Shown piece by piece: positions 22,892 to 36,067 of a stretch of 45,076 nt of DNA. The translations under genes were made by a program, and so were the position numbers. Every line of letters starts with the position of its first letter. The stretch's first letter is position 1. The notes beneath the pieces are model-generated. The model was not told where the DNA came from and did no database searches. It saw only the letters and a program-made list of their open reading frames with translations. This DNA comes from Actinomycetes bacterium (lineage in GTDB: Bacteria; Actinomycetota; Actinomycetes; JACCUZ01): NCBI GenBank assembly GCA_035759075.1, contig DASTVO010000152.1:1-45076 (forward strand). The letters are read 5' to 3'.

Positions 22892-23011
22892 CCCGACCCC
22901 TCGCTCTGACCTGCGCCGACGTCATCGCACTACGCCCAGAGGCGGTTGTGAGCCGCGGTGCCGCCACGTAGCCTCGAGAGCACGACGACCTGCCAGCCGA
23001 CGGGGCGCACC

Positions 23012-23476
23012 ATGGACCCACTCCTGCGTCTGCACACCGCGGTGCTCGAGGACGTCGTGGTCGTGCGCTGTCACGGCGAGCTCGACCTGTCCTCCGGCAC
23101 CGGGCTGCTCGACGGCCTCGCGCCGGCCGTCGCGCTCGCCGACCACGCCGTCGTGCTCGACCTCAGCGACCTGGTCTTCATCGACTGCGCCGGCGCGTCC
23201 AGCCTGGTGGCCGCGCGCACGGAGATCGCCCGGTGCGGGATCGAGGTGGTCCTGGCGGCCCCGAGCCGGCCGGCGGCACGGTTGCTGAGCCTCACCGGCA
23301 CCGGCGAGCTCATCCCGATCTTCCCCACCGTCCGGCAGGCGGTGAACAAGTTCCACCGGGTGAGCAGCGCGACGGGCAGCCCCGACCCGACGAGCCGGAC
23401 CCCTCGCGTACGGCCGCGGGTCCCGCCGCCGCGCGGCCCCCGGCCGGCTAGTTCGCGGCGCCGACCTCGACGGTGA
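23012..23476 (+). CDS. STAS-domain protein (anti-sigma-factor antagonist-like)
   Basis: ATG 23012. The sequence VVVRCHGELDLSSGTGLLDGL...VVLDLSDLVFIDCAGASSLV is the STAS pattern. It is followed by a Pro/Arg-rich tail that overlaps the convergent gene by 29 nt. Confidence 0.75.
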   Translation: MDPLLRLHTAVLEDVVVVRCHGELDLSSGTGLLDGLAPAVALADHAVVLDLSDLVFIDCAGASSLVAARTEIARCGIEVVLAAPSRPAARLLSLTGTGELIPIFPTVRQAVNKFHRVSSATGSPDPTSRTPRVRPRVPPPRGPRPASSRRRPRR

Positions 23477-24050
23477 GAGACCTGCTGACCTGCTCCTCGG
23501 CGGGGGTGCCCGCCTCGCAGGTGTAGGTCGCGAGGCCCATCACGACCTTGTACCTGCCGGGCTCGCTCCAGGTGTGGGTGACGTCGTAGGTGCCGCCGGA
23601 CGAGTCGGCGGTCGGCGTCCCGGCGTCGCAGCGCGCCATGCCGAGCGAGCTCGTCCCGACTCCGTCGCCCCACTCCTCGGTGGTCCCGCTGAAGGTCCCC
23701 GACCCGTCCGTCCACCGGACGGTCAAGGTCGTCTCCTCGCCGGCGACGACACGGGCCGGCACGGCCACGGTCATCCCGAGTGGGGCCGGGCCGGCCGGTC
23801 TCGCGGCCGGTCCCACCGGCGGCGTCGCCACGACGTCCTCCTCACCACTGGACCAGACCAGGAGCCCCACGACCGTGACGACCGCGACCGCAGCGGCCAG
23901 CAGGCCGGCAAGCAGCACGGGCCGTCGCACGGACCGGCGGCGGGTGGGGTGCGCCGCGGCGCTGTCCGGGACGACGTCCGGTCCGGACCGGGTCACGTCG
24001 AGCTGGGGCTCGTGGCGCACCTCGATGCCGTGGCCGTGGCGTGCGTCCAT
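23448..24050 (-). CDS. Single-pass membrane protein with PKD/Ig-like extracytoplasmic domain
   Basis: Start at MDARHGHG (ATG 24050). The TM helix is VLLAGLLAAAVAVVTVVGLLVW. The C-terminal beta-rich domain has the PKD-like THTWSEPGRYKV. Confidence 0.65.
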   Translation of the reverse strand: MDARHGHGIEVRHEPQLDVTRSGPDVVPDSAAAHPTRRRSVRRPVLLAGLLAAAVAVVTVVGLLVWSSGEEDVVATPPVGPAARPAGPAPLGMTVAVPARVVAGEETTLTVRWTDGSGTFSGTTEEWGDGVGTSSLGMARCDAGTPTADSSGGTYDVTHTWSEPGRYKVVMGLATYTCEAGTPAEEQVSRSLTVEVGAAN

Positions 24051-24186
24051 GCGTCCCTCCCCTGCCGTCCGCCCCCGCAGGCAGGCTAGGCCGTCGTGGT
24101 CACGCAGCGTGTCGGAACGCCGAAATCGGGAGGTTCCCGGCCGGAGCCGGTCACAGTGCGCACGTGCGCACAGGGGCGACCGGCGG

Positions 24187-24570
24187 TCAGTGCGAGGCGA
24201 GCCGGTGCTCGGCCTGCCGCGACGGAGGCATCGGGCAGCAGTCCTCGACCGCGGCGACACTGCTGGTCACGTGCAGCTTGCGCCGCAGCTGCATGAGGTC
24301 CAGCACCCGCAGCACGGACGGCTGGTCGGCCACGAAGTGCACCTCGCCGCCGAGCAGGCCCTGCCGGTGGTGGACGCGGAGCAGGCTGCCGATGCCGGTG
24401 GAGTCGATGAAGGTCACCCCGCGCAGGTCGACGACCAGGCTCTCCACACCCCGGTTGAGCTGGGCGAGGAGGGTGTCGCGCAGGACGGGCGCGCTGGCGA
24501 CGTCGATCTCACCGGTGACTCCCACCACGGTGTGACGTCCGACCTGGTGCGGGTCGAGCAAGCTGATCAT
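24187..24570 (-). CDS. STAS-domain anti-sigma-factor antagonist
   Basis: 127 aa from ATG 24570, with VVGVTGEIDVASAPVLRDTL...LVVDLRGVTFIDSTGIGSLL. Confidence 0.8.
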   Translation of the reverse strand: MISLLDPHQVGRHTVVGVTGEIDVASAPVLRDTLLAQLNRGVESLVVDLRGVTFIDSTGIGSLLRVHHRQGLLGGEVHFVADQPSVLRVLDLMQLRRKLHVTSSVAAVEDCCPMPPSRQAEHRLASH

Positions 24571-24774
24571 CGACGCCCCCTGGTTCCCGTGTCGCCGCCG
24601 GACCTGGGCTCGAGCCGGGCGACGTCCGAGCAGGGTAACCCGCGCGAACGGCGGTGGGAAGAGACCGAGGTGATGGATTTCGTACGCGGGAGAATCGCTG
24701 CTCGGGCAACGAGTTTGATGATCCTCTCCAGTCAGGTCCGGGACGTGAGACGACGAAATCCGAAGGTGCCCTCC

Positions 24775-24793
24775 GACCGGCTCGCAGCCGGTC
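24775..24793 (-). terminator. Possible terminator hairpin overlapping the USP stop codon
   Basis: GACCGGCT-cgc-AGCCGGTC, an 8-bp stem. The downstream U-tract is weak. Confidence 0.3.
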
Positions 24794-25646
24794 ACCGCAC
24801 CACCATCACCGGGCAGTGGGAGTGGTGGACCAGCGCCTGGCTCGTGGAGCCCAGCAGCAAGCCGGCGAAGCCGCCGGACCCGCGGGCACCGACGACGACG
24901 ATGCCTGCGGTCTCCGAGTGGAGGAGCAGCTCCTTCGCCGGCGGGTGGTCCCCCAGCACGACCTCGACCTCGACGTCGGGGTAGTCCACCCGGGCCGCGG
25001 CCAGCTCCTTCTCCACCAGGGCCCGCGCGTCCTCCTCTGCCGCGACGAGGTGGTCGCGATAGCTGCTGGCGCCCTCCTGCCGCAGCGGAACGGTGAACGA
25101 GTGGACCGCCCTCACCGGCGCGCCGAGCCGCTGGGCCAAGGCGAACGCCTCGGACACCGCGTGGTGTGACCGGTCGTGCCCGTCGATTCCCAGGACCACG
25201 GGGCCGGACCGACCGGCCTCGCCGCGGACGACGACGACCGGACAGGCGGCATGCATCGCGCATGCCACCCCCACCGACCCGAGCAGCAGCCCGGCGAAGC
25301 CTCCCAGCCCTCGGCTGCCCACCACGAGCAGCTGCGCGTTCTTCGAGCCCTCGACCAGTCGGGCAGCGGTGTCCCCGGTCACCAGGCGCGAGTCGACGTC
25401 CAGCTCGGGCGCGACCCGCCGCGCAGCGTCCACGGCATCGGCGAGGACCCGCTCCGCCTGAGCCTGCAGCCCTGCACCGGCCGGGGCGCCGGGAGCGGGG
25501 CCGAGGCTGACGCGGTAGAGCGGCCAGACCCACGCGTACTCGACCAGCAGCGGTGCGCCCCGACGCACCGCCTCGCCCGCCGCCCACCGGACCGCCTGCA
25601 GAGCGCTCTCGGACCCGTCCACACCGACCAGCACAGATCTCTCCAC
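24792..25646 (-). CDS. Universal stress protein, tandem USP domains
   Basis: Start chosen at GTG 25646 (VERSVLVGVDGSE). Two USP domains are present, each with G-x2-G-x9-G(S/T) (GSRGLGGFAGLLLGSV and GARGSGGFAGLLLGST). Confidence 0.85.
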   Translation of the reverse strand: MERSVLVGVDGSESALQAVRWAAGEAVRRGAPLLVEYAWVWPLYRVSLGPAPGAPAGAGLQAQAERVLADAVDAARRVAPELDVDSRLVTGDTAARLVEGSKNAQLLVVGSRGLGGFAGLLLGSVGVACAMHAACPVVVVRGEAGRSGPVVLGIDGHDRSHHAVSEAFALAQRLGAPVRAVHSFTVPLRQEGASSYRDHLVAAEEDARALVEKELAAARVDYPDVEVEVVLGDHPPAKELLLHSETAGIVVVGARGSGGFAGLLLGSTSQALVHHSHCPVMVVR

Positions 25647-25803
25647 GTACCGCAGGCTAGGTGAGCACGCGGGCCGCGGCGCAGGGCCGATCACCGGGCC
25701 GGCCGAGGACTTTGGTCATCCCGAGGCCCGCCCTGCGGCACTGCTGAGGGCGGCCGTCCCCCTGTGTGCTGGACCACGGGAAGCCTGCAGACGAGGAGAA
25801 CCC

Positions 25804-26694
25804 GTGGCCGCCGAGACCAGCCCAACCGTCGTCGTCGGTATGGACGGATCGGACGCCGCGCAGGCCGCGGTGGAGTACGCCGCTGACCTCGCGGCCCGGC
25901 GCCGCCTTCCGTTGCGCGTGCTGCACGCGTTCGAGGCCTCCCAGCACGAGCTGATGCCGGCCCGCGGGTGGCACCGCGACCGGCAGGAGGTTCTGCGACG
26001 CGCGGCCCAGCAGATGCTGGACCAGACCCGCGAAGTGCTCTCGATGGCCTGCCCGGACCTCGAGGTGCAGACCCAGCTCCAGCCCGGTTCGCCGGTCCAG
26101 GTGCTCGTGGAGGAGTCACGGCATGCGGACAGCATCGTGGTCGGTCGGCGGGGAGCGGGCGGGTTCACCCCGCTGCTGCTCGGGTCCACACCGTTCCACC
26201 TGTGCGCCCAGGCCAGCTGCCCCGTCGTCGCCGTGCCGGCACCGGAGGTCGTCGACCAGGAGCGGCGGGAGGTCGTGGTCGGGGTCGACGGCTCGGCCGG
26301 CGCCGAGCGCGCCCTCGAGTACGCCTTCCAGGCCGCGGCCGAGACAGGTCAGCCGCTGGTGGCGGTGCGGGTGTGGTCCGAACCCGGCCAGGTGGTGACC
26401 GGTCTGCGCATCTCCCTGGTGTCCGACCGGGACGAGGTCGAGCGCCACGAGGAGGAGCAGCTCTCCTCCGACCTGGCCTCCTGGGCCGGCAAGTTCCCGG
26501 AGGTACGGGTCGAACCGCTGGTCGTCGCCGGCCACCCCGCCGAGGTCCTGCTCTGGCGCGCCCGGACGGCGAGGCTGCTGGTCGTCGGGAGCCGAGGACG
26601 CAGCAGCCTGCGCAACGCCATGTTCGGCTCGGTCAGCCATGCCGTGGTCCACCACGCCAACGGGCCGGTCGCGGTCGTGCCGGCAGCGATCTGA
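25804..26694 (+). CDS. Universal stress protein, tandem USP domains
   Basis: 296 aa with VVVGMDGSDAA.. and ..VVGVDGSAGA. The second domain has the full nucleotide-binding loop (GSRGRSSLRNAMFGSV), while the first has a variant loop (GRRGAGGFTPLLLGST). Confidence 0.88.
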   Translation: MAAETSPTVVVGMDGSDAAQAAVEYAADLAARRRLPLRVLHAFEASQHELMPARGWHRDRQEVLRRAAQQMLDQTREVLSMACPDLEVQTQLQPGSPVQVLVEESRHADSIVVGRRGAGGFTPLLLGSTPFHLCAQASCPVVAVPAPEVVDQERREVVVGVDGSAGAERALEYAFQAAAETGQPLVAVRVWSEPGQVVTGLRISLVSDRDEVERHEEEQLSSDLASWAGKFPEVRVEPLVVAGHPAEVLLWRARTARLLVVGSRGRSSLRNAMFGSVSHAVVHHANGPVAVVPAAI

Positions 26695-26709: not shown

Positions 26710-27579
26710 ATGGACGTGCCAACCCCCACCGGAGCGATCGTCGTCGGCGTCGACGCGTCCGAGGACAGCGACAGAGCAGTGATATGGGCATTGGGAATGG
26801 CCGAGCCGAGCGGCACACCGGTGCACTTCGTGCACGTGCAGACCTCCGCGCCGTCGTACCTCCTGGACGAGACCGGCCGGCAGAAATGGGAGCGCGCCGG
26901 TCAAGCGATCCTCGACGCGGCCATCGAGCAGGCTGAACAGGTCCCGACCGTGCCGGTCAGCCGACAGACGATCTTCGAGCCTGGCGTGGCGACTGCCGAC
27001 GGGCTGGTGTCGGCGAGCAAGGACGCGTCGATGGTCGTCGTCGGCACCCGCGGCCACGGAGGCTTCGCCGGGCTGCTGGTGGGGTCGGTGAGCCAGCACG
27101 TCGCCCGGCACGCCGACTGCCCGGTGGCCGCGGTGCGTGCACAGGCCGACCCGCACGCGAACCGCGTCGTCGTCGGTGTCGACGACTCCGAGGGCGCCCA
27201 GGAGGCGCTGGCGCTCGCGTTCGAGATCGCCGCGCAGCACGGGGTCGGCCTGACGGCGGTCCACGCCTTTCACGCGCCGTCGCTGTACGGCCGTGGCGTG
27301 GTGCTGCCGATGCCCGGAGACGTCGGCGAGCACCTCGCCTCGGAGCAGCAGGAGCTGGCGCGCGTGCTCGCGCCGTGGGAGCAGAAGTACCCGGGCGTCC
27401 CGGTGACGCCGGAGGTCATCCCCGGCCACCCGGCCGAGGTGCTCACGCACGCGTCCGGGCGCGCCGCCCTCGTCGTCGTCGGATCGCGCGGTCGCGGGGC
27501 GTTCACCGGCCTGCTGCTCGGCTCGGTCGGTCAGCAGCTGCTGCACCTGGCTCAGTGCCCGGTACTGATCGCCCGCTGA
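26710..27579 (+). CDS. Universal stress protein, tandem USP domains
   Basis: 289 aa. An AAGGAG Shine-Dalgarno sequence lies upstream. Motifs are IVVGVDASEDS.. and GTRGHGGFAGLLVGSV / GSRGRGAFTGLLLGSV. Confidence 0.88.
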   Translation: MDVPTPTGAIVVGVDASEDSDRAVIWALGMAEPSGTPVHFVHVQTSAPSYLLDETGRQKWERAGQAILDAAIEQAEQVPTVPVSRQTIFEPGVATADGLVSASKDASMVVVGTRGHGGFAGLLVGSVSQHVARHADCPVAAVRAQADPHANRVVVGVDDSEGAQEALALAFEIAAQHGVGLTAVHAFHAPSLYGRGVVLPMPGDVGEHLASEQQELARVLAPWEQKYPGVPVTPEVIPGHPAEVLTHASGRAALVVVGSRGRGAFTGLLLGSVGQQLLHLAQCPVLIAR

Positions 27580-27669
27580 TCGAATCCCGCCTCGTCGAGC
27601 CCTGACCTGGGCCATGCTGTCGGCCACCGGACCACGGAGGTGGTCGGCACCACGGGCGGAGGTCGGTCG

Positions 27670-28353
27670 GTGGAGTGGCGGATCCTGCGCGACCTGCGCG
27701 AGGAGGACCGGGAGCGCGTGCTCACGGCAGCCACGCGCCGCCGGTTCGCCCGGGACGAGACTGTCGTGCACCAGGGTGAGCCGGGGGCTGCGTTCCACCT
27801 GCTCGCCAGCGGCCGGGTGGCCGTCCGCGTGACGACCCCGGACGGCGAGACCGTGATCCTCTCCGTCCTCTCCCCCGGCGACTTCTTCGGTGAACAGGCC
27901 CTGCTCGGACCGCGCCACCAGCGCACGGCCTCGGTGGTGGCGCTGGAGCCGGTGGAGACGCTCGCCCTCGACGCAGCACGCTTCGAGTCCCTACGGCGGG
28001 AGCAGCCCTCCGTGGAGCGGTTCCTCGTCGAGGTGCTGGCGGCACAGGTCCGACGCCTCACGGCGCACCTGGTCGAGGCGTTGCACGTCCCGGCCGAGCA
28101 GCGCACCCTGCGCCGGCTGCTCGCTCTCGCCCACCAGTACCGGACGCCGAACGGCGGCGGCCCGGTGGTCGTACCGGTCACCCAGCAGGACCTCGCCACC
28201 ATGGCGGGCACGACCCGGCCGACCGCCAACCGCGTGCTCCGCGCGATGGAGGACGCCGGCGCCCTGCGGCTCGCCCGAGGCCGGATCGAGGTGCTCGACG
28301 TGCAGGCGCTGCGCACCGAGGCCGGGGCGCACGCCGGGACGAGAAAGACCTGA
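27670..28353 (+). CDS. Crp/Fnr-family transcriptional regulator (cNMP-binding domain plus HTH)
   Basis: The cNMP-binding cassette is FGEQALLG..RTASVVA. The C-terminal HTH is TQQDLATMAGTTRPTANRVLRAME. GTG 27670 follows GGAGG by 9 nt, and GTG 27640 is the alternative start. Confidence 0.85.
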   Translation: MEWRILRDLREEDRERVLTAATRRRFARDETVVHQGEPGAAFHLLASGRVAVRVTTPDGETVILSVLSPGDFFGEQALLGPRHQRTASVVALEPVETLALDAARFESLRREQPSVERFLVEVLAAQVRRLTAHLVEALHVPAEQRTLRRLLALAHQYRTPNGGGPVVVPVTQQDLATMAGTTRPTANRVLRAMEDAGALRLARGRIEVLDVQALRTEAGAHAGTRKT

Positions 28354-28441
28354 GAAAGTCGGTTGTGTCGCGCAGCGCACAGACGAAGTCGCCTGGCCCC
28401 TGCAGTATTTCGCCCAAGCCCGGACCTACCAGGAGGACACC

Positions 28442-28654
28442 ATGAGCGAGAACGACACCACCAAGGACCAGCTCGACGACGTCGAGGGTCACGTGCTCAA
28501 GCGGCCCAGCGCTGCCGAGGTCGACGACGTCTCGGGTCACGCGCTCAAGCGGCCGTCCGCCCAGGACGAGGACGACGTCGAGGGCCACGCCCTCAAGCGG
28601 CCGTCCGCCCAGGACGAGGACGACGTCGAGGGCCACGCCCTCAAGCGTCCGTAA
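28442..28654 (+). CDS. Small acidic repeat protein (70 aa; 16-aa unit DDVEGHALKRPSAQDE, 3.7 copies)
   Basis: AGGAGG lies 7 nt upstream of ATG 28442. The product is MSENDTTKDQLDDVEGHVLKRPSAAEVDDVSGHALKRPSAQDEDDVEGHALKRPSAQDEDDVEGHALKRP. The repeats are in frame and the protein ends exactly at a unit boundary. Confidence 0.7.
   Translation: MSENDTTKDQLDDVEGHVLKRPSAAEVDDVSGHALKRPSAQDEDDVEGHALKRPSAQDEDDVEGHALKRP
28475..28651 (+). repeat. 48-nt tandem repeat (3.7 copies) inside the small CDS
   Basis: Units are 28475-28522, 28523-28570, 28571-28618 and a partial 28619-28651. Unit 4 is identical to the corresponding part of unit 3 except for one base (gcggccg versus gcgtccg). Confidence 0.9.
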
Positions 28655-28657
28655 CAA

Positions 28658-28672
28658 CCCTCCTCGGGAGGG
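28658..28672. terminator. Hairpin in the 30-nt gap between the convergent repeat-protein and S8 genes
   Basis: CCCTCC-tcg-GGAGGG. It could act as a bidirectional terminator. The stem is short and there is no clear U-tract. Confidence 0.4.
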
Positions 28673-28684
28673 CTGAGACCGTGC

Positions 28685-29491
28685 TCACGCCGTGGCGTTG
28701 TCTGCCACGGCGTGCAGCACGGTCTTCACGTGGAAGGGGGTCAGCCCGGGGTGCTTGGACAGCAGCCGGGCGATCAGACCGGCGACATGAGGGGCCGCGA
28801 AGCTGTTCCCGGTGGTCACGATGGTCCCGCCGCCCTTCCAGGCGACCGTGACGTCGATGCCGGGGGCCCCGAACTCCACCGGCGGCCGGGGGTTGTAGTC
28901 GATGCCGAACGGGTCGTGCCGGTCGTGGGCCGCGACCGAGAACACCGACGCGTACTGCGACGGGTAGCTCGGCGCCGGCACGTTGTTCACCGCGCACACC
29001 AGCATCACGTTGGCGAAGTAGGCGCGGTCGGCGAGCTCGTGAAAGAGCGCGAAGTAGTCCTCCTTGCCGGTGCTCAGTGACAGGTTGACGACCCGGAAGC
29101 CGTGGTCGATCGCCCACTCGAGGCCGGCCGCGAAGACCAGGCCCTTGCCGGTGAGGCGCTCCCCGAGGACCCGGATGCTGTGCAGACGGCACTGCGGCGC
29201 GACGGCCCGGACGATGCCGGCGCACGCGGTGCCGTGCCCGAAGAGGTCCTGGTGCGGTCCCTCGACCCGCCGGACGCCGTCCTCCTCGTCTGGGTCGTAC
29301 GACATGGCCACGGCCGACGTGACGGCACCGACCAACGGGTGGTCGGCGTCCACGCCGCTGTCGATGACCGCCACGTCGACGCCGGAACCGTCCGCGCCGC
29401 CCCAGGCCCACTCCCGGGTGATGCCCTGGGGGAAGGGCCGGACAGACGTCAGGGTGGCCGGGTCGAAGAGCTCCGACCAGGCCGGTCTCAG
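28685..29491 (-). CDS. S8 family (subtilisin-like) serine peptidase without signal peptide or propeptide
   Basis: The catalytic triad contexts are intact: VAVIDSGVDADHP (Asp), HGTACAG (His) and GNSFAAPHVAG (Ser). No ATG, GTG or TTG lies in frame near the domain start. The 5' end is set at CTG 29491-29489, which overlaps the GAF gene's TGA, so it is uncertain (see findings). Confidence 0.8.
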   Translation of the reverse strand: MRPAWSELFDPATLTSVRPFPQGITREWAWGGADGSGVDVAVIDSGVDADHPLVGAVTSAVAMSYDPDEEDGVRRVEGPHQDLFGHGTACAGIVRAVAPQCRLHSIRVLGERLTGKGLVFAAGLEWAIDHGFRVVNLSLSTGKEDYFALFHELADRAYFANVMLVCAVNNVPAPSYPSQYASVFSVAAHDRHDPFGIDYNPRPPVEFGAPGIDVTVAWKGGGTIVTTGNSFAAPHVAGLIARLLSKHPGLTPFHVKTVLHAVADNATA

Positions 29492-30252
29492 CTCAGACGT
29501 CGTCCCCGCCCCCTGACGGCGGACTGCCTCACGTACGTCAGCAGCGACTCGACGACACCTCTCGCGAGCGCGCGCTCGGCCGACCCCATGCGGTCGAGGT
29601 GCCCGAGCAGGGCGGCCAGGGCCAGCAGGTCCTTGTCCGGTTCGCCCGCTCGGTCCGCGGCCGCTGCCAGCGCCTCGGCCAGCGGCGTCTCGGGCGCGGC
29701 AGCTGCGACGGCCTCCAGGACCGACCTGCCGAGCTCGGAGAACGCCCGAGAGTTCTCGATCGCCAACGCCGCCTGGTCGGCGAACAGGGAGAGCAGTCGC
29801 ATGTCCTGCTCGGCACCGGGCCGGGAGGCGTCGCGGTCGAGCACCTCGATGACGCCCAGGACCCGGCGCGGGCTGGTGACCGGTACCGCGAGGATGGCCG
29901 TCGGCACGTAGCCGGTGGACTCGGCGACGTCCGTAGCGAAGCGGGCGTCCTGCTGGAGGTCGGCGATCGAGATGGGCTGCTCCGACATCACGACCCATCC
30001 GGCGATGCCCTGCCCGGCCGGGATGCGGAGATCGACGACGTCGTCGGCGCCCGTGCCGGCGGCGGTGGTGAAGACCAGCTCGGACTGGTCGTCGGTCAGC
30101 AGCGCCAACGAGCACGCCTGGGCGCCGAACAGCTCCCGCGCGGCCTCGGTGATGCTGTGCAGCAGCTCGCTCGTCCCGACCGGTGCCAGGGCGGGCCCGA
30201 CCGCCGTCAGGACCCGGCTGAGGTCCTCGAGGAGCTCCCCGTCCTCGCTCAC
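29488..30252 (-). CDS. GAF domain-containing protein
   Basis: 254 aa with a GTG start. The GAF core (ACSLALL..LVFTTAAG..GIAGWVV..PISIADL..AILAVPV..GVIEVLD) is followed by an alpha-helical C-terminal region of about 80 aa. Confidence 0.85.
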   Translation of the reverse strand: MSEDGELLEDLSRVLTAVGPALAPVGTSELLHSITEAARELFGAQACSLALLTDDQSELVFTTAAGTGADDVVDLRIPAGQGIAGWVVMSEQPISIADLQQDARFATDVAESTGYVPTAILAVPVTSPRRVLGVIEVLDRDASRPGAEQDMRLLSLFADQAALAIENSRAFSELGRSVLEAVAAAAPETPLAEALAAAADRAGEPDKDLLALAALLGHLDRMGSAERALARGVVESLLTYVRQSAVRGRGRRLS

Positions 30253-30256
30253 CGGG

Positions 30257-30676
30257 TCAGCGCGTCCTGGCCTCCGCAGCGCGCAGATGCCGGCAGAGGC
30301 CGAGCAGAAGGGCGTGAGCCATCTTCGGGTGCGCCTCGAGGAGCGGCGCGAAGTTCCAGGCCGGCAGTGACAGCGTCCGCACCGTGCCGTCCGGGACGAT
30401 CGTGGCTGACCGCGGCTTGCCGTCGAGCAGTGAGATCTCCCCGAAGTAGTCGCCGGGCCCGAGCGTGCCCTTCACTTCGCCGTGCTGCTTCACCGTGACC
30501 GTCCCGTCGAGGATCAGGTGGAAGCCGACCCCGCTCTTGCCTTCTTCGGCGAGCTCGCCACCGGCGTCATGGGTCACCTCACGGGACCGGCTCAGGACGT
30601 CACGAAGCTCCTTGTCCGACAGGCCCTGGAACAGGGGGACGGAACGAAGCCGCTCGAGCATCTCCGTGTCAGCCAT
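30257..30676 (-). CDS. Stand-alone cyclic-nucleotide-binding domain protein
   Basis: 139 aa from ATG 30676, with LFQGLSDKELRDV...GDYFGEISLLDGKPRSATIVP, a phosphate-binding cassette containing Arg. It has no output domain. Its stop lies 4 nt before the GAF gene start. Confidence 0.85.
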   Translation of the reverse strand: MADTEMLERLRSVPLFQGLSDKELRDVLSRSREVTHDAGGELAEEGKSGVGFHLILDGTVTVKQHGEVKGTLGPGDYFGEISLLDGKPRSATIVPDGTVRTLSLPAWNFAPLLEAHPKMAHALLLGLCRHLRAAEARTR

Positions 30677-30833
30677 CAGCCACCCATCTCGACGTGTCCG
30701 GTGCCACCAGCCATCGCGGCACAGCGAACGCTGCCACCGCGGACCACCGCGCGCAACCACTTCTGATCTCTGCGCGAGCCCTGGTCCCGGAGATCAACCA
30801 GACCGCAGACGCCCAACCGTCATCGGCCGCATC

Positions 30834-33380
30834 ATGTGGGGCGTGCGCACCGACCTGCCGACCGGGACGGTGACGTTCCTGTTCACCGACATCGAGGGCT
30901 CGACCCGGCTGCTGCACGAGCTGGGGAGCGAGGCGTACGCCGCGGCGCTGCTCGAGCACCGGCGGCTGGTGCGTGCCGCCTGCGCTGCGTACGACGGCGT
31001 CGAGGTCGACACCCAGGGCGACGCGTTCTTCGTCGCCTTCCCGACTGCCCCAGGCGCGGTGCTGGCTGCCGCGCGCATCGTCGAGGACCTACGCCCGGGT
31101 CCGATCCGGCTCCGGATGGGGCTGCACACCGGGACGCCGTACGTCACCGCCGAGGGTTACGTCGGTGAGGACGTGCACCGTGCTGCGCGGATCGCGGCGT
31201 GCGGACACGGCGGACAGGTGCTTGTGTCATCGGCCACCGCCGCCCTGCTGCGACCCGGCACGCTGCCCGACGGGCTGGACCTGCGCGACCTAGGTGACCA
31301 CCGGCTCAAGGACCTCTCCGCCGCCGAACGCATCCACCAGCTGGGCGACGACGACTTCGCGCCGCTGAAGAGCCTGCACCGCACGAACCTCCCGGTGCCG
31401 GCGACGCCGTTTCTCGGCCGTACCCGGGAGCTGGCGGAGGTGACGGATCTGCTGTCTCGCGTGGATGTCCGGCTGCTGACTCTGACCGGCCCCGGCGGGA
31501 CGGGGAAGAGCCGACTGGCCCTGCAGGCCGCGGCCGAGGTGTCGGACCGCTTTCCCGGCGGGGTGTTCTGGGTGCCACTGGCACCGCTGCGTGACCCCGG
31601 CCTCGTGCTCGCGACGGCCGCTGCCGCGGTGGGAACCGGGGAGGACCTGCGGGACCACATCGGGGACAAGTCGATGCTCCTGCTGCTCGACAACTTCGAG
31701 CACCTCATGGGAGCGACCGCTGACCTCCACAGCCTCATGGCCACCTGCCCGAAGGTCGTCCTGCTCGTGACCAGCCGCGAGACCCTGCGCCTGCCGGGCG
31801 AGCAGGCCTACCCGGTGCCGCCGCTCCGCGGCGACGAGGCCGTCGAGCTCTTTGCCGCCCGGGCACGCGCGGCCGACCCGCACTTCGTCCCCGGCCCCAC
31901 GCTCGTGCTGCTCACCGAGCGGCTCGACCGGCTCCCGCTGGCCATCGAGCTTGCCGCGGCGCGCGTCCGGGTCCTCACGATGGATCAGCTCGTCGACCGC
32001 CTGGACCGCCGGCTCGACCTGCTCAAGGCCGGACGTGGCGCCGACCCCCGCCAGCAGACACTTCGCGCGACGATCGAGTGGAGCCACGATCTGCTCGACG
32101 ACGAGGAGAGACGGCTGTTCGCCCGGCTCGGCGTGTTCTCCGGAGGCTGCACGCTGGAGTCCGCGGAGAGGGTCTGCGATGCCGACCTCGACGTGCTGGA
32201 GTCGCTCGTCGACAAGAGTCTGGTACGTGTTCGCGACGGTGACCGCTTCTGGATGCTCGAGACGATCCGTGAGTACGCCGTCGAACGTCTCCGGGACAGT
32301 GCGGAGCTGGCCGAGCTTCGGCGCCGCCACGCCGAACACTTCCTCGCCCTGGGCGAGGAGGCGGCGCCGCACCTGCGAGGCTCGGCGGCCGCGCGGTGGC
32401 TCGACCGGCTCGACGACGAGCACGACAACGTGCGGGCCGCGCTGGAGTGGTTCGCCCGCGAGCAGCGGGTGGACGAGCATCTGCGCCTGGCCGCATCGCT
32501 CGTCGAGTTCTGGCTGAGCCGCGGGTTCCTGAGCGAGGGCCGTCGCATCCTGGCCGACGCTCTTGCAGCAGGCGACGGTGAGCCGGGGTCGCGGGCCCGC
32601 GCGCTCGACGGGGCCGCGGTCCTCGCCGTGTCCGCAGGCGACACGGGCGCGGCACGGTCGCCCGCGGCCGAGGCACTGGCGATCCACCAACGGCTCGGCG
32701 ACGAGGCGGCCCGTGCCGAGTCCCTGTGGACCCTCGGGTACGTGGCCGTCGAGGACAAGGACTGGTCGGCGGCGCAGAAGGCAGTGGAGGAGAGCACGAG
32801 CATCTTCAGGAGGGTGGGCGACGTCCCGAGCCTTCTCGGCGCGAGCCGCACGCTGGCGTGGATCCACCACATGCGCGGCGATCTCGACACGGCACGCCGG
32901 CTGCACGAGCAGAACCTCGCGCTGGCGAGAGGCGCGGGCCATCAGGCGGTCCAGGCGGCGATCCTCGGCTCGCTGGGGAACATCGCAACGGAGCAGGGCC
33001 GCCTGGCCGATGCCGCGACGATGCTCCGTGAGAACCAGCGGCTGGTCGAGGCCCTCGGGGACCGCACGGCCATCGTCGTGAACCTGGCCCGAATCGCTCG
33101 GCTGCTCGCCCTCCTCGGCGAGCGGGAGACGGCGGCCGCTCTGCTGGCCTGCTCGGAGGAAGCGAGCCGGACCATGGGCGGGTGGGAAGCCTGGGCGGGC
33201 GTCCTGAACGACGGGACGCGGGCGATGCTGGAGGGTCTCCCCCAGGACCTCTGGGAGAGAGCCGCCCGACGCGGGGTCCGGCTCGCGCCGGAAGACGCAG
33301 CTCGCGAGGCGCTCTCGGTGGCGGCGCAAGCTCTCGAGCCCGAGCATCGGGCCCACGGTTCCAGCGGGGAGCAGTGCTGA
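30834..33380 (+). CDS. Class III nucleotidyl cyclase domain fused to STAND (NB-ARC-like) P-loop ATPase and TPR array
   Basis: 848 aa from ATG 30834. The cyclase fold is TFLFTDIEGST..QGDAFFVAF..GEDVHRAARI..GGQVLVS. The Walker A motif is GPGGTGKS and Walker B is LLLLDNFEH. The C-terminal roughly 350 aa are repetitive helical, TPR-like. Confidence 0.88.
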   Translation: MWGVRTDLPTGTVTFLFTDIEGSTRLLHELGSEAYAAALLEHRRLVRAACAAYDGVEVDTQGDAFFVAFPTAPGAVLAAARIVEDLRPGPIRLRMGLHTGTPYVTAEGYVGEDVHRAARIAACGHGGQVLVSSATAALLRPGTLPDGLDLRDLGDHRLKDLSAAERIHQLGDDDFAPLKSLHRTNLPVPATPFLGRTRELAEVTDLLSRVDVRLLTLTGPGGTGKSRLALQAAAEVSDRFPGGVFWVPLAPLRDPGLVLATAAAAVGTGEDLRDHIGDKSMLLLLDNFEHLMGATADLHSLMATCPKVVLLVTSRETLRLPGEQAYPVPPLRGDEAVELFAARARAADPHFVPGPTLVLLTERLDRLPLAIELAAARVRVLTMDQLVDRLDRRLDLLKAGRGADPRQQTLRATIEWSHDLLDDEERRLFARLGVFSGGCTLESAERVCDADLDVLESLVDKSLVRVRDGDRFWMLETIREYAVERLRDSAELAELRRRHAEHFLALGEEAAPHLRGSAAARWLDRLDDEHDNVRAALEWFAREQRVDEHLRLAASLVEFWLSRGFLSEGRRILADALAAGDGEPGSRARALDGAAVLAVSAGDTGAARSPAAEALAIHQRLGDEAARAESLWTLGYVAVEDKDWSAAQKAVEESTSIFRRVGDVPSLLGASRTLAWIHHMRGDLDTARRLHEQNLALARGAGHQAVQAAILGSLGNIATEQGRLADAATMLRENQRLVEALGDRTAIVVNLARIARLLALLGERETAAALLACSEEASRTMGGWEAWAGVLNDGTRAMLEGLPQDLWERAARRGVRLAPEDAAREALSVAAQALEPEHRAHGSSGEQC

Positions 33381-33464: not shown

Positions 33465-34952
33465 ATGGTGAGACGGGGGGGTGGCGTGGCCGGGACGACG
33501 CTTGCACTGGCGCGGCTCGTGCTGGTGGCCGGGCTGACGGTCTCGACGACGCTGGTGGCGTCACCGGTCGGCGCCGAACCGACCGTCGGCCGAACCGCGA
33601 TCTTCATGCAGCCGTATCCGACGACCGTCGGTGACGCCGGCAGCTCACCCTTCCCGTCCCGGGTCGACGTCTCGGGAGTCACCGGCGATGTCCTCGACGT
33701 CGACGTGACGCTGTCCGGCGTCGAGCACCAGTGGCCGGACGACCTCGACGTGGTGCTGGTGGCACCCGACGGCACGGCAGCGACGGTCATGAGCGACGTC
33801 GGCGGCGACGACCAGACGCCTGCGACCGGCACGGCGTTGACCTTCGACGACGACGCCTCGGGCTCCGTTCCCCCCGGACTCCTCAGCGGCCGGTACCGTC
33901 CGCATGACGACGACTCGGATCCCGGCGACCCGGACCTCGAGGGTGCGGACGCCACCTTCGCCCAGCTGGCCGCCGCCCCGGTGAACGGCACCTGGGAGCT
34001 GTACGTCAACGACGACACCTATGACTTCGACGGTCGCATCGCCTCCTGGTCGCTCAGCTTCCAGGTGACGGATCGGCCGATGATCACGGGCCCGGCGTCC
34101 GGGTCGGTCCTCCCCGGCAGCACGATCCCGGTTCGCGGGACCGGCTCACCAGGCGCCACGGTCTACGTCGGAGCCGCTCAGCAGCCGGCCCGGACCGTCA
34201 CGGTGGCCGCCGACGGCACCTGGGCGGTCGATCTCACCGGTCTCGCAGACGGGACCCACCTCGTGACCGCCTCGAGCGGACCGGGCCGGACGGGGTCTTC
34301 CACCACCGTGCGCCTCGACAGCACTGCACCGACCGGGACGCTGGTCCTGCGCACGGTACGAGGCGGTCCGGAGGTGACCTCCAGCCGCAGGGTCTACCTG
34401 GAGGTCGCGGCCGGCGAGCCGCTGCGGGGGATCCGGGTCAGCAACGACGGCGCCGCGTACGGGCCGCTGGTGCCGGTGGTTCCCGGCGGGGTCGCATGGC
34501 TCCTGTCCGAGCAGGACGGCACCCGACGCGTCTTCGTCCAGCTCGAGGACCTGGTGGGCAACGTCTCCAACGGCTACCTCAGCGACACCGTGACGTTGGA
34601 CCGGGTGGCCCCGCGCATCCTCCGGAGCTCACCGCGAGCCGGAGCTGTCGGCGTTCGCCGCGACAAGGTCATCACGGCCCGTTTCGACGACTTCGTCACG
34701 CCGAACAGCGGCGTCAGCCCGTCCTACCTCATCCGTGTGTTCCGGGCAGGTTCAGACCGGCCGCTCCGTGCCACCGTCCGCTACGACCCGGCGACGGCGA
34801 CCGTCCGGGCTCTGCCGCACCGGCCGCTGCGTCCGCGGACGCGGTTCAAGGTCGTGGTCAGCGGGTTCGAGGACGCGGCGGGCAACTGGCTCGACCAGGA
34901 CCCGGCCAAGGCGGGAACGCAGCCGGGAGTGTGGCGATTCCGGACCCGGTGA
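33465..34952 (+). CDS. Secreted protein: proprotein-convertase P-domain plus bacterial Ig-like domains
   Basis: Start at MVRRGGGVAGTTLALARLVLVAGLTVSTTLVASPVGA, which looks like a signal peptide. P-domain motifs are DVDVTLSGVEHQWPDDLDVVLVAPDGT and NGTWELYVNDDTYDFDGRIASWSLSF. Ig-like and SbsA_Ig-like repeats follow. Confidence 0.8.
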   Translation: MVRRGGGVAGTTLALARLVLVAGLTVSTTLVASPVGAEPTVGRTAIFMQPYPTTVGDAGSSPFPSRVDVSGVTGDVLDVDVTLSGVEHQWPDDLDVVLVAPDGTAATVMSDVGGDDQTPATGTALTFDDDASGSVPPGLLSGRYRPHDDDSDPGDPDLEGADATFAQLAAAPVNGTWELYVNDDTYDFDGRIASWSLSFQVTDRPMITGPASGSVLPGSTIPVRGTGSPGATVYVGAAQQPARTVTVAADGTWAVDLTGLADGTHLVTASSGPGRTGSSTTVRLDSTAPTGTLVLRTVRGGPEVTSSRRVYLEVAAGEPLRGIRVSNDGAAYGPLVPVVPGGVAWLLSEQDGTRRVFVQLEDLVGNVSNGYLSDTVTLDRVAPRILRSSPRAGAVGVRRDKVITARFDDFVTPNSGVSPSYLIRVFRAGSDRPLRATVRYDPATATVRALPHRPLRPRTRFKVVVSGFEDAAGNWLDQDPAKAGTQPGVWRFRTR

Positions 34953-35883: not shown

Positions 35884-35885
35884 GG

Positions 35886-35959
35886 TGGGGCGGCTGGGAC
35901 TCGAACCCAGGACCCAGGGATTATGAGTCCCCTGCTCTAACCGGCTGAGCTACCGCCCC
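35886..35959 (-). tRNA. tRNA-Met (anticodon CAT; elongator-like; Ile-lysidine type not excluded)
   Basis: The reverse complement is a 74-nt cloverleaf. Acceptor is GGGGCGG/CCGCCCC, anticodon arm is GGGGA-CTCATAA-TCCCT and the T-loop is TTCGAGT. The 3' end lies 2 nt from the hydrolase stop codon. Confidence 0.85.
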
Positions 35960-35994
35960 GCGCCGGGGCCCCGGCGAGGCCGCCCCGATGAGCG

Positions 35995-36067
35995 CTCCCG
36001 CACCTGGACTCGAACCAGGAACCTACCGGTTAACAGCCGGTTGCTCTGCCAATTGAGCTATGCGGGA
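35995..36067 (-). tRNA. tRNA-Asn (anticodon GTT)
   Basis: The reverse complement is a 73-nt cloverleaf. Acceptor is TCCCGCA/TGCGGGA, anticodon arm is ACCGG-CTGTTAA-CCGGT and the T-loop is TTCGAGT. Confidence 0.9.

Follow-up and report, generated by a model that had tools for sequence, protein, structure and literature searches.

A GAF–subtilase gene pair with conserved cyclic-nucleotide-binding partners: a candidate module for regulated intracellular peptide processing in soil bacteria

Introduction

The nearest published concept to the genes considered here is that of the actinobacterial peptide-processing systems of Kaur, Burroughs, Iyer and Aravind (2020, eLife; PMC7159879, section 24), who expect the processed peptide to act as a signal or a toxin. 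Our genes lie on a stretch of 45,076 nucleotides from an Actinomycetes bacterium (GTDB lineage Bacteria; Actinomycetota; Actinomycetes; JACCUZ01; assembly GCA_035759075.1, contig DASTVO010000152.1, positions 1 to 45,076 of the forward strand), which we call the window. They centre on a GAF-domain protein and a peptidase of the subtilase family S8, whose genes overlap and are accompanied by genes for cyclic-nucleotide (cNMP)-binding proteins, a small repeat peptide and a cyclase fused to a STAND ATPase and tetratricopeptide repeats (TPRs). An original prediction, made from the letters of the sequence, had described this region as a cNMP-controlled protease module, which proved to be a good working description whose interpretation is partly supported. 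Our own reading, in which we place about even confidence, is that these genes are one instance of a conserved chromosomal module that serves cNMP-regulated intracellular peptide processing. With the systems of Kaur et al. the module shares a small, fast-diverging candidate precursor beside a dedicated peptidase, a STAND NTPase with C-terminal TPRs and a cNMP-sensing Crp-type regulator, which is occasional in those systems (PMC7159879). Their peptidase, however, is a zincin-like metallopeptidase, their precursors are of the FxSxx-COOH, RxD or acidic type, and a radical-SAM/SPASM enzyme is often present, whereas the module has a subtilase with a GAF partner, DDVEGH repeats, a cyclase on the STAND protein and near-universal cNMP-binding proteins, among them a major facilitator superfamily (MFS) transporter fused to a cyclic-nucleotide-binding (CNB) domain.

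A second comparison is with the S8 enzymes of ribosomally synthesized and post-translationally modified peptides (RiPPs) and related pathways. The cyanobactin proteases PatA/PatG, QhpE and the yeast alpha-factor/Kex2 pair are examples of subtilisin-like leader peptidases or of multi-core precursors. As in these systems, the module has an S8 protease beside a small precursor-like gene with recognition motifs and variable tandem segments, basic residues after the motif and an exporter gene nearby. It differs from them in that its NCBIfam scores fall far under the cut-offs, no modification enzymes are co-conserved, and the S8 protein has neither a P-domain nor a DUF/macrocyclase domain; nothing in the PatA/PatG, QhpE or Kex2 systems corresponds to the module's GAF partner or to its cNMP layer. 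Nucleotide-activated proteases are known from defence, where CalpL is a Lon-SAVED protein and others are SAVED-CHAT proteins, and Pycsar joins a PycC cyclase to a cNMP-binding effector. The module is like these in that the enzyme which generates a nucleotide is encoded together with a receptor domain and with a protease or some other effector. Its sensors, however, are GAF and CNB domains rather than SAVED or CARF, its protease is of family S8 rather than Lon or CHAT, and it shows strong housekeeping-like conservation and no CRISPR or defence-island context.

Single proteins of the module also have described relatives. In the mycobacterial cyclases of the Rv0386/Rv1358/Rv2488c type a class III cyclase is likewise followed by an AAA/NB-ARC-like ATPase and TPRs, but the C-terminal LuxR helix-turn-helix of the Rv0386 type is missing from the window protein. 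The intracellular subtilisin proteases (ISPs) of Bacillus and marine bacteria resemble the S8 protein in being cytoplasmic, in having no I9 prodomain and in carrying a short conserved N-terminal extension; the ISP extension bears the inhibitory LIPY/F motif, whereas that of the module S8 reads (L/M)RPAWSE.F, and the module enzyme is smaller (about 270 aa) and always encoded together with a GAF protein (PMC6220982). Literature searches that paired GAF with S8, cNMP with subtilisin, and sactipeptide with cyclase and GAF returned no description of the module, and none of the repeat peptide. By the features compared, it is a member of none of these families, and both the combination of its parts and the peptide family are new.

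Conservation of the GAF-S8 pair and its partners

The survey of related loci was anchored on the S8 protease. In a scan of one genome per GTDB species at least 569 genomes had a relative; the best 80 loci and three more from contig look-ups made up the 83 loci analysed, with up to 10 kb of flank on each side, and the counts given below come from iterative profile searches (hidden Markov models, HMMs) of all open reading frames (ORFs) in them. The hosts belong to Actinomycetota (Sporichthyaceae, Frankiaceae, Geodermatophilaceae, Mycobacteriales, Motilibacter, Quadrisphaera, Phycicoccus, Thermoleophilia and Acidimicrobiales), Dormibacterota and Chloroflexota, and come mainly from soil metagenomes, including palsa and Antarctic samples. 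A GAF gene lies directly 5' of the S8 gene and abuts it in 83 of 83 loci. Around this pair we found a cNMP-binding domain in 80 loci, as a Crp-type regulator, a stand-alone protein or an MFS_3 fusion; an MFS_3 transporter fused to a cNMP-binding domain in 60; the repeat peptide in about 58; a cyclase domain in 38; and STAND and TPR domains in 33 each. Each of these component calls is borne out by the precomputed Pfam annotation of independent contigs. A first tblastn pass with the window proteins (E <= 1e-5) had placed GAF directly 5' of S8 in 80 of 80 loci and under-detected the divergent partners; its low yield for the cyclase, about 5 of 80 loci, was a sensitivity artefact, as precomputed Pfam annotation and the iterative HMMs made clear.

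The partner genes crowd towards the pair. Measured from it over the 83 loci, the density of small cNMP-binding proteins per 100 kb is 26 within 2.5 kb, 2 at 2.5–5 kb, 0.6 at 5–7.5 kb and 1.2 at 7.5–10 kb; for MFS-sized cNMP-binding proteins the corresponding values are 13.2, 2.3, 1.9 and 0.4, for repeat peptides 15.8, 0.6, 0.6 and 0, and for cyclases 9.1, 5.0, 4.2 and 2.0. For cNMP-binding genes this is an enrichment of 20- to 40-fold close to GAF-S8. In the 56 loci where at least 5 kb was available on both sides, that distance takes in a cNMP-binding gene in 55 cases, a repeat peptide in 46 and a cyclase in 29. The association of these genes with GAF-S8 is far beyond chance. The order GAF then S8 is constant, and the remaining genes occur in 67 orders and orientations; such invariant adjacency within otherwise shuffled surroundings argues for functional linkage and not for inherited synteny. 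The most widely shared further neighbour in an all-against-all clustering of 11,435 ORFs occurs in 11 loci, which belong to a single clade. Neither the P-domain protein next to the window cyclase nor the genes for universal stress proteins (USPs) and STAS proteins are co-conserved with the module in the 83 loci. A check of neighbourhood conservation, which the original prediction had proposed, thus came out in favour of co-conservation across three phyla. As to the five linked components that it had named, the GAF-S8, cNMP-binding, repeat-peptide and cyclase genes are indeed co-conserved or enriched, while the P-domain protein does not belong with them. Its list had also missed the MFS_3-CNB exporter, which is not in the window, and the likely role of the repeat peptide as a precursor or substrate.

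Most loci show a single copy of the module. Three of the surveyed contigs are unusual. The closest S8 relative (84% identity, L001, JAJAYQ010000227.1) stands in the same module on a contig deposited in a metagenome-assembled genome (MAG) of a 'Spirochaetaceae bacterium', and this contig is probably mis-binned, since all the other close relatives are actinomycetes. One bin (MAG MFD05176.bin.2.78) has two module copies on different contigs (L040 and L070) with nearly identical N-termini of the repeat peptide; the module was recently duplicated, or the bin contains more than one strain. In L084 (ERZ25039588 contig_46797, 304599-316904) S8, GAF and CNB genes beside a repeat peptide are called as short pieces, for example an S8 of 82 aa, which suggests assembly frameshift errors or a decaying copy of the module.

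The S8 protease and its CTG junction with the GAF gene

Gene calls in the window rest on an analysis of third-position GC (GC3) by frame together with a Pfam check, and all the Pfam scores of called genes exceed the gathering cut-offs. The G+C content is about 72%, uniform from end to end, and at this value raw ORF lists consist mostly of spurious frames. Three genes form an operon on the minus strand. The first encodes a stand-alone CNB protein of 139 aa (30257-30676; PF00027, 49.8 bits), the second the GAF protein of 254 aa (29488-30252; GAF_2, PF13185, 73.3 bits) and the third the S8 peptidase of 268 aa (28685-29491; Peptidase_S8, PF00082, 95.9 bits against a cut-off of 21.8). Four nucleotides separate the CNB stop from the GAF start, and GAF and S8 overlap by four. 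The domains, their order, the gap and the overlap that had been predicted were all found as described.

The S8 protein is a subtilase by its domain, its fold and its active site: the triad D44/H86/S230 and the oxyanion N170 are invariant in 85 homologues, and its AlphaFold2 model (predicted local distance difference test, pLDDT, 93) shows a minimal subtilisin fold whose best matches are mature, prodomain-free and calcium-loop-deleted variants of subtilisin BPN' (template modelling score about 0.72). It is no classical secreted subtilisin or kexin. The window protein has no signal peptide, I9 prodomain or fused P-domain (Pfam; the N-terminus is not hydrophobic). In their place stands a conserved N-terminal extension of 34 aa, (L/M)RPAWSE.F..L..V.P..LP..ITREWAWGG, in which the LIPY/F motif of the ISPs does not occur. 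Database relatives number at least 7996; the best 120 listed are 67–98% identical and about 230–300 aa long, and there are no fusions among these 120. The best partial NCBIfam match is QhpE, at 111.8 against a cut-off of 165, and a weak match to the PatA domain scores 28 against 421. QhpE is a small, cytoplasmic subtilisin-like protease which takes off a peptide leader.

The start of the S8 gene needs a correction. The window frame has no ATG, GTG or TTG for at least 50 codons 5' of the conserved N-terminus, and at the start position there is a CTG, within a CTGA that overlaps the GAF stop (29488-29491, minus strand). At the same junction other clades have ATGA, GTGA or TTGA. The CTGA form is common to 17 other loci, and about 20 loci are without any canonical S8 start. 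The loci listed with a CTG junction are L001-L003, L008, L010, L015, L021-L024, L026, L027, L031, L042, L043, L049, L067 and L081. The simplest reading is that S8 is translated by termination-reinitiation at CUG, coupled to GAF. All S8 protein would then come from ribosomes that had finished GAF immediately before, and its yield would probably be lower. Could the two proteins instead be joined by a -1 frameshift into a fusion? This is unlikely, since no slippery heptamer was seen and the S8 frame of L003 is already closed 11 codons 5'. A translation that depends on GAF fits a protease which must never exist without its partner.

The GAF protein

In the AlphaFold2 model of the GAF protein (pLDDT 83.7) the GAF domain is followed by a long helix, three further helices in the C-terminal region and a basic tail. 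A profile of the family (43 members) finds in the PDB the GAF domains of CyaB2 (cAMP; 3e-31), cAMP-bound Lcd1 (7e-28) and PDE2A GAF-B (1e-21), followed by those of PDE5, PDE10 and PDE6; all the leading matches (3e-31 to 1e-16) are cNMP GAFs but one, the GAF domain of an HD-GYP protein (4mcw) whose ligand is unknown. Foldseek ranks the same cNMP GAFs first. The family and the cNMP GAFs have in common the stretches ACS, RIPAxQGIAG, TGY and AVP. On this evidence the GAF protein is, by descent, a member of the cNMP-binding GAF clade. Inspection by eye had suggested that the protein lacks an NKFDE motif and would therefore probably not bind nucleotides, a view that did not survive the comparisons of profile and fold. 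In HMMER alignments the NKFDE region reads D-R-F-A-E (D139-R140, F105, A110-E111). Among the nucleotide contacts of CyaB2, which are R291, T293, I308, D356 and N359 (PMC4411481), T293 corresponds to an invariant S48, as in Lcd1 and PDE2A, and N359 to an invariant T113, as in PDE2A and Lcd1, while the equivalents of R291 and D356 are both Ala. Nucleotide binding by the GAF protein is plausible from these comparisons.

It may be, however, that the genes share no more than a regulon. According to this explanation there would be a local Crp/cAMP circuit, the GAF protein would have another ligand or none and would serve as a chaperone, inhibitor or substrate adaptor, and the protease would not be under nucleotide control. 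The incomplete NKFDE motif and the loss to Ala of two CyaB2 contacts to adenine and ribose speak for it, as does the wide range of GAF ligands in general (PMC4411481). The translation of S8 points the same way, for the enzyme has no prodomain chaperone and its obligatory co-translation with GAF would fit a trans-acting foldase or inhibitor. Classical subtilisins require their prodomain as a chaperone. We nevertheless think this explanation rather unlikely: by profile and by fold the nearest relatives of the GAF protein are consistently cNMP-binding GAFs (about 25–29% identity in the Foldseek alignments), and three other kinds of cNMP receptor as well as a cyclase accumulate around GAF-S8.

The Crp-type regulator, the CNB proteins and the exporter

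The Crp/Fnr regulator of the window (27640-28353, plus strand) has a cNMP-binding domain (PF00027, 85.6 bits), with the phosphate-binding cassette GEQALLGPRHQRTA intact (GEQALL...RTA), and a C-terminal Crp-type helix-turn-helix (HTH_Crp_2, PF13545, 66 bits), which places it in the CRP/FNR family; it reaches no equivalog cut-off in NCBIfam. Its gene has an alternative start at about 27670, so the left edge of 27670 first given for the module falls inside the Crp gene or at this alternative start. In most related loci a Crp-type gene adjoins GAF-S8, in variable position, and precomputed Pfam annotation agrees in L081, L085 and L087. The cassette of the stand-alone CNB protein, GEISLLDGKPRSA, is likewise intact. 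Across the loci the pattern G-E-x-x-L...R-[ST]-A is kept in 168 of 178 cNMP-binding domains, as well as in both window proteins. With the GAF protein in a cNMP-binding clade and the CNB cassettes intact, the earlier summary of one nucleotide generator, up to three receptors and one protease is a fair description.

An MFS_3 protein that ends in a CNB domain occurs in 60 of 83 loci and mostly occupies the position which the stand-alone CNB gene has in the window, directly 5' of GAF; counts of the MFS_3(-CNB) gene range from 60 to 66 loci. MFS_3 is an exporter family of the secretion-effector type.

The repeat peptide and a probable peptide-maturation context

Between the Crp gene and the protease lies a gene for a cytoplasmic peptide of 70 aa (28442-28654, plus strand), convergent with S8 and preceded by an AGGAGG Shine-Dalgarno sequence 5' of its ATG. 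The peptide has four copies of D-D-V-E/S-G-H-A/V-L-K-R-P joined by acidic spacers, and no signal sequence. In the family at large the motif is [DE]-D-[VT]-E-G-[HQ]-[RK]-[KR], with a period of 11–18 aa and 2–13 copies; the peptides are highly charged and contain no cysteines. The spacers are nearly identical inside one peptide and hypervariable from species to species. A strict scan for the motif found the peptide in 48 of 83 loci and in none of 83 reversed-sequence controls, and 50 of the 53 motif clusters lay within 2.5 kb of GAF-S8. The reciprocal test, which started from homologues of the peptide, gave convergence to an S8-GAF-Crp set for all three that could be looked up. A profile search returned 760 cluster representatives, all of them small proteins, and the 13 homologues found in a word-indexed search carry no annotation and no Pfam domain. 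A short conserved motif with hypervariable spacers resembles a multi-core precursor, and the peptide is likely, as a candidate, the precursor or substrate of S8.

What favours this role is mainly the company kept by a rearranged form of the pair. In L090, on the 727-kb plasmid NZ_CP108138.1 of Streptomyces sp. NBC_00184 (294148-306522), the order is permuted to S8 then GAF, again with a 4-nt overlap; the S8 protein is 50% identical to that of the window and keeps the family motifs, and the GAF protein is shorter in the permuted form. The pair comes directly after a cyclase-AAA_16-TPR gene. On one side stand genes for a radical-SAM enzyme, an iron-containing redox enzyme family protein and an 'aroma-sacti cluster domain' RiPP precursor (NF045560, 73.9 bits against a cut-off of 30), and on the other those for a glycosyltransferase, an oligopeptidase B-like enzyme, an MFS_3 transporter and a second radical-SAM protein. 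This context, as we analyse it, ties the set of cyclase-STAND-TPR, S8, GAF and MFS_3 to peptide maturation and export. A second permuted pair, in Miltoncostaea oceani (L089, NZ_CP064357.1, 191268-205747), is followed by an MFS-CNB gene. The module itself has the outline of a peptide-processing system, with a small candidate precursor gene beside a dedicated peptidase and an exporter, the last of which is not in the window.

Might the pair instead serve in stress and dormancy? GAF-S8 would then be a cNMP-gated housekeeping protease that degrades the repeat peptide, a protective or inhibitory disordered polyampholyte, or other regulators; degradation would take place on entry to or exit from dormancy, and the MFS-CNB protein would export cAMP itself and not peptides. 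The high charge of the peptide, its lack of cysteines and of partner modification enzymes, the mainly soil-metagenome origin of the hosts and the very strong conservation of S8 (58–84% identity across phyla in the surveyed loci) would all suit such a switch. So would the surroundings of the window module, which has three tandem-USP genes and the STAS genes as neighbours. The nucleotide-binding motif G-2x-G-9x-G[ST] is present in six of six USP domains of the window, and since a mycobacterial USP is reported to bind cAMP (PMC11107214), the tandem-USP proteins could be additional cAMP-binding proteins. The original prediction had leaned on these neighbours for a stress-signalling reading, but they are lineage-specific and not co-conserved with the module. 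A strict six-residue motif with hypervariable spacers points, moreover, to specific recognition rather than to bulk physicochemistry, a related trio sits within a RiPP cluster, which argues for peptide maturation, and the transporter is of an exporter family of the secretion-effector type. We regard the stress switch as improbable.

The cyclase-STAND-TPR protein

Divergent from the operon, across an intergenic region of about 157 bp (30677-30833), lies the gene for a protein of 848 aa (30834-33380, plus strand). The ORF had been listed from 30465 and starts near 30834; the domain layout that went with it stands. The protein has a cyclase domain (Guanylate_cyc, PF00211, 42.7 bits, cut-off 21.9), an AAA_16 domain (36.8 bits, cut-off 32.6) and TPRs (TPR_MalT, 54.4 bits, cut-off 45; TPR_12, 47.3 bits, cut-off 30.1); NB-ARC and WHD matches are sub-threshold. 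With a Walker A motif GPGGTGKS at residue 219 and a Walker B motif LLLLDN at residue 282 it has the features of a MalT/AfsR-like STAND NTPase with TPRs. The nearest solved cyclase domains are Ma1120 and Rv1900c. The two metal-binding Asp (FTDIEG and QGDAF) and the transition-state Arg (HRAAR) which characterise class III cyclases are present and align with those of Ma1120.

The canonical adenine-specifying Lys and Asp and the transition-state Asn are, however, replaced by Asp, Gly and His, so that the active-site signature reads D, D (for K), D, G (for D), H (for N), R. In the linked cyclase domains of other loci these positions are mostly canonical (Lys in 52 of 62, Asn in 55 of 62). We take the D/G/H variant not to be a product of decay, because the orthologues in L082 and L083 (51% identity over 777 aa) have the same three residues and the same divergent position. 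In Ma1120 the canonical Asn is naturally Ala and dispensable, the enzyme being active, and the K101E/D157G mutant gains guanylyl cyclase activity (PMC4215837). The Asp/Gly pair of the window cyclase comes closer to this Glu/Gly pair, which raised guanylyl cyclase activity in the Ma1120 mutants. By its signature and the Ma1120 data, the window cyclase may make cGMP or mixed products, or may have low activity. Cyclase(-STAND-TPR) genes are enriched towards GAF-S8 in the related loci, and a linkage of such a protein to a GAF-S8 operon has not been described before.

Genomic context and a possible defence function

Could the module be an anti-phage or conflict system that follows the logic of Pycsar, of cyclic-oligonucleotide-based antiphage signalling systems (CBASS) or of type III CRISPR? 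The cyclase-STAND protein would in that case sense infection, and a nucleotide-activated protease would bring about abortive infection. STAND-TPR sensors and nucleotide-activated proteases are known themes of defence, and PADLOC gives domain-level matches, to the CNB region of PycTIR and to a generic 'subtilase'. Actinobacterial conflict systems can, furthermore, combine peptide-processing modules with STAND-TPR and CRP genes (PMC7159879). The defence idea had been put forward in the original prediction as a speculation, with Pycsar and the CalpL and SAVED-fused proteases as parallels, and it fares poorly. The cyclase has no match to PycC; the PycC and PycTIR profiles of PADLOC hit the Crp regulator and the CNB protein, and there only in the CNB domains. 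These domains stand alone or are fused to a helix-turn-helix or to MFS_3, which is not the architecture of a Pycsar effector. Pfam and PADLOC found no SAVED, CARF or TIR domain, no membrane effector and no Lon or CHAT protease in any module protein.

The chromosomal setting also tells against defence. The window module is flanked by core genes (aceE, fabF, a carboxyltransferase gene, DUF3145, topoisomerase IB, a sigma-70 factor and DnaG), the G+C content is uniform, and contig look-ups show fabF close to the module in further genomes. Conservation is high, and most loci have one copy. In a phage collection only generic S8 matches of about 30% identity were obtained and the module family was not found; in a plasmid collection relatives occur only on two large non-mobilizable replicons, each with the permuted S8-GAF pair. 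No integrase or mobility gene was seen in the annotated part of the window, in which no integrase or repeat search was aimed at the tRNA site. A role in defence thus seems very unlikely to us.

A model for cNMP-regulated peptide processing

We return to the reading that the module serves intracellular peptide processing under cNMP control. The following sequence of events would account for its parts. The GAF and S8 proteins would bind each other, and through the GAF subunit of this complex a cyclic nucleotide would gate the protease. S8 would cut the tandem-repeat peptide, with its species-specific spacers, into short peptides, and in most genomes the MFS_3 'secretion effector' transporter, with a cNMP-binding domain of its own, would export the product. 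The Crp-family regulator would place transcription under the same messenger. The messenger would be supplied by the cyclase-STAND-TPR protein once its TPR/NTPase sensor is triggered, as in about half of the genomes, that of the window included; in those without a neighbouring STAND-cyclase it would come from other cyclases. A cyclic nucleotide would thus act at three levels, on transcription through Crp, on proteolysis through GAF and on export through MFS_3-CNB. The gene content, its co-conservation, the coupling at the GAF/S8 junction, the intact catalytic and ligand-binding motifs and the kinship with cNMP-binding GAFs are observed; from these the GAF-S8 complex, its gating, the cutting of the peptide, its export and the nucleotide itself are inferred. 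Which nucleotide this would be in the window is uncertain, because the specificity signature of its cyclase is non-canonical.

Several observations weigh against this model. About 30% of loci have no detectable repeat peptide nearby, and the peptide may have another role, as a regulator or inhibitor or as a disordered protein that protects. No modification enzyme is co-conserved in the 83 loci, radical-SAM genes being found only in the permuted Streptomyces relative, so that the module does not qualify as a classical RiPP pathway. A cyclase is missing within 10 kb in about half of the loci, which makes it an accessory and not a defining part, and the window enzyme may make a product other than cAMP or be weakly active. 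The window has only the stand-alone CNB protein and no MFS_3-CNB exporter. The GAF protein has only part of the NKFDE motif, and Ala stands where CyaB2 has R291 and D356. Finally, a search for a Crp-type operator (TGTGA-N6-TCACA) found none: the window has 3 matches at up to two mismatches, against 8.4 expected, and none of them is in the divergent promoter region, while the 83 loci gave 5 near and 3 far matches at up to one mismatch, no usable signal.

Perhaps the short peptides are themselves the signal. The module would then be a self-contained peptide-pheromone circuit of a new type, like quorum sensing and with positive feedback, in soil Actinomycetota, Dormibacterota and Chloroflexota. 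The cNMP-gated GAF-S8 pair would cut the DDVEGH-repeat precursor, the cNMP-gated MFS_3 would export species-specific peptides whose signal specificity is encoded in the hypervariable spacers, and the TPR array of the STAND-cyclase would sense them; more cyclic nucleotide would follow, and the loop would close through Crp. TPR receptors sense peptides in the RRNPP systems. We offer this extension as a speculation with a small chance of being right.

To our knowledge, cAMP signalling is extensive in Actinomycetota, with many cyclases and receptors, and few outputs are known beyond Crp-type regulators, an acetyltransferase and a USP. If peptide processing under cNMP control is the right reading, a protease with an obligate partner of the cNMP-binding GAF type would be a new class of bacterial cAMP/cGMP output, with a partner family conserved in at least 569 species of three poorly studied and mostly uncultured phyla. 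The abundant orphan cyclase-STAND-TPR proteins would gain a concrete downstream pathway, and an unannotated family of repeat peptides (the 760 cluster representatives) would be defined together with a partner protease and an exporter that can be tested. The conserved CTG start over the GAF stop would be a clear example from nature of two genes coupled by termination-reinitiation at a non-canonical start codon.

Intergenic features and flanking genes

Two intergenic features of the module can be read directly from the sequence. A GC-rich hairpin, CCCTCC-TCGG-GAGGG (28659-28675), lies between the convergent repeat-peptide and S8 genes and looks like a bidirectional terminator. The divergent region 5' of the operon and of the cyclase gene presumably holds the promoters of both.

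Downstream of the cyclase gene and on the same strand, a protein at about 33465-34952 has a signal-peptide-like N-terminus, a partial proprotein-convertase P-domain (P_proprotein) and Big_6/Big_5 Ig-like domains; Pfam recognises no peptidase domain in it. It had been counted as part of the module, and we considered it as a Kex2-like partner of the protease. Its N-terminus, by which it is probably secreted, and the absence of co-conservation with GAF-S8 speak against both.

On the other side of the module there are three adjacent tandem double-USP genes (24792-25694, minus strand; 25804-26694 and 26710-27579, plus strand). Between these and the fab/DUF3145 genes lie two genes for STAS proteins of the anti-sigma-factor antagonist type (22952-23476, plus strand; about 24187-24530, minus strand). 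From 23590 to 24984 long ORFs overlap on both strands, those on the plus strand without a Pfam match. About 1 kb beyond the P-domain protein and overlapping hydrolase genes, the window has a tRNA-Met and a tRNA-Asn gene (35884-35959 and 35994-36067, minus strand).

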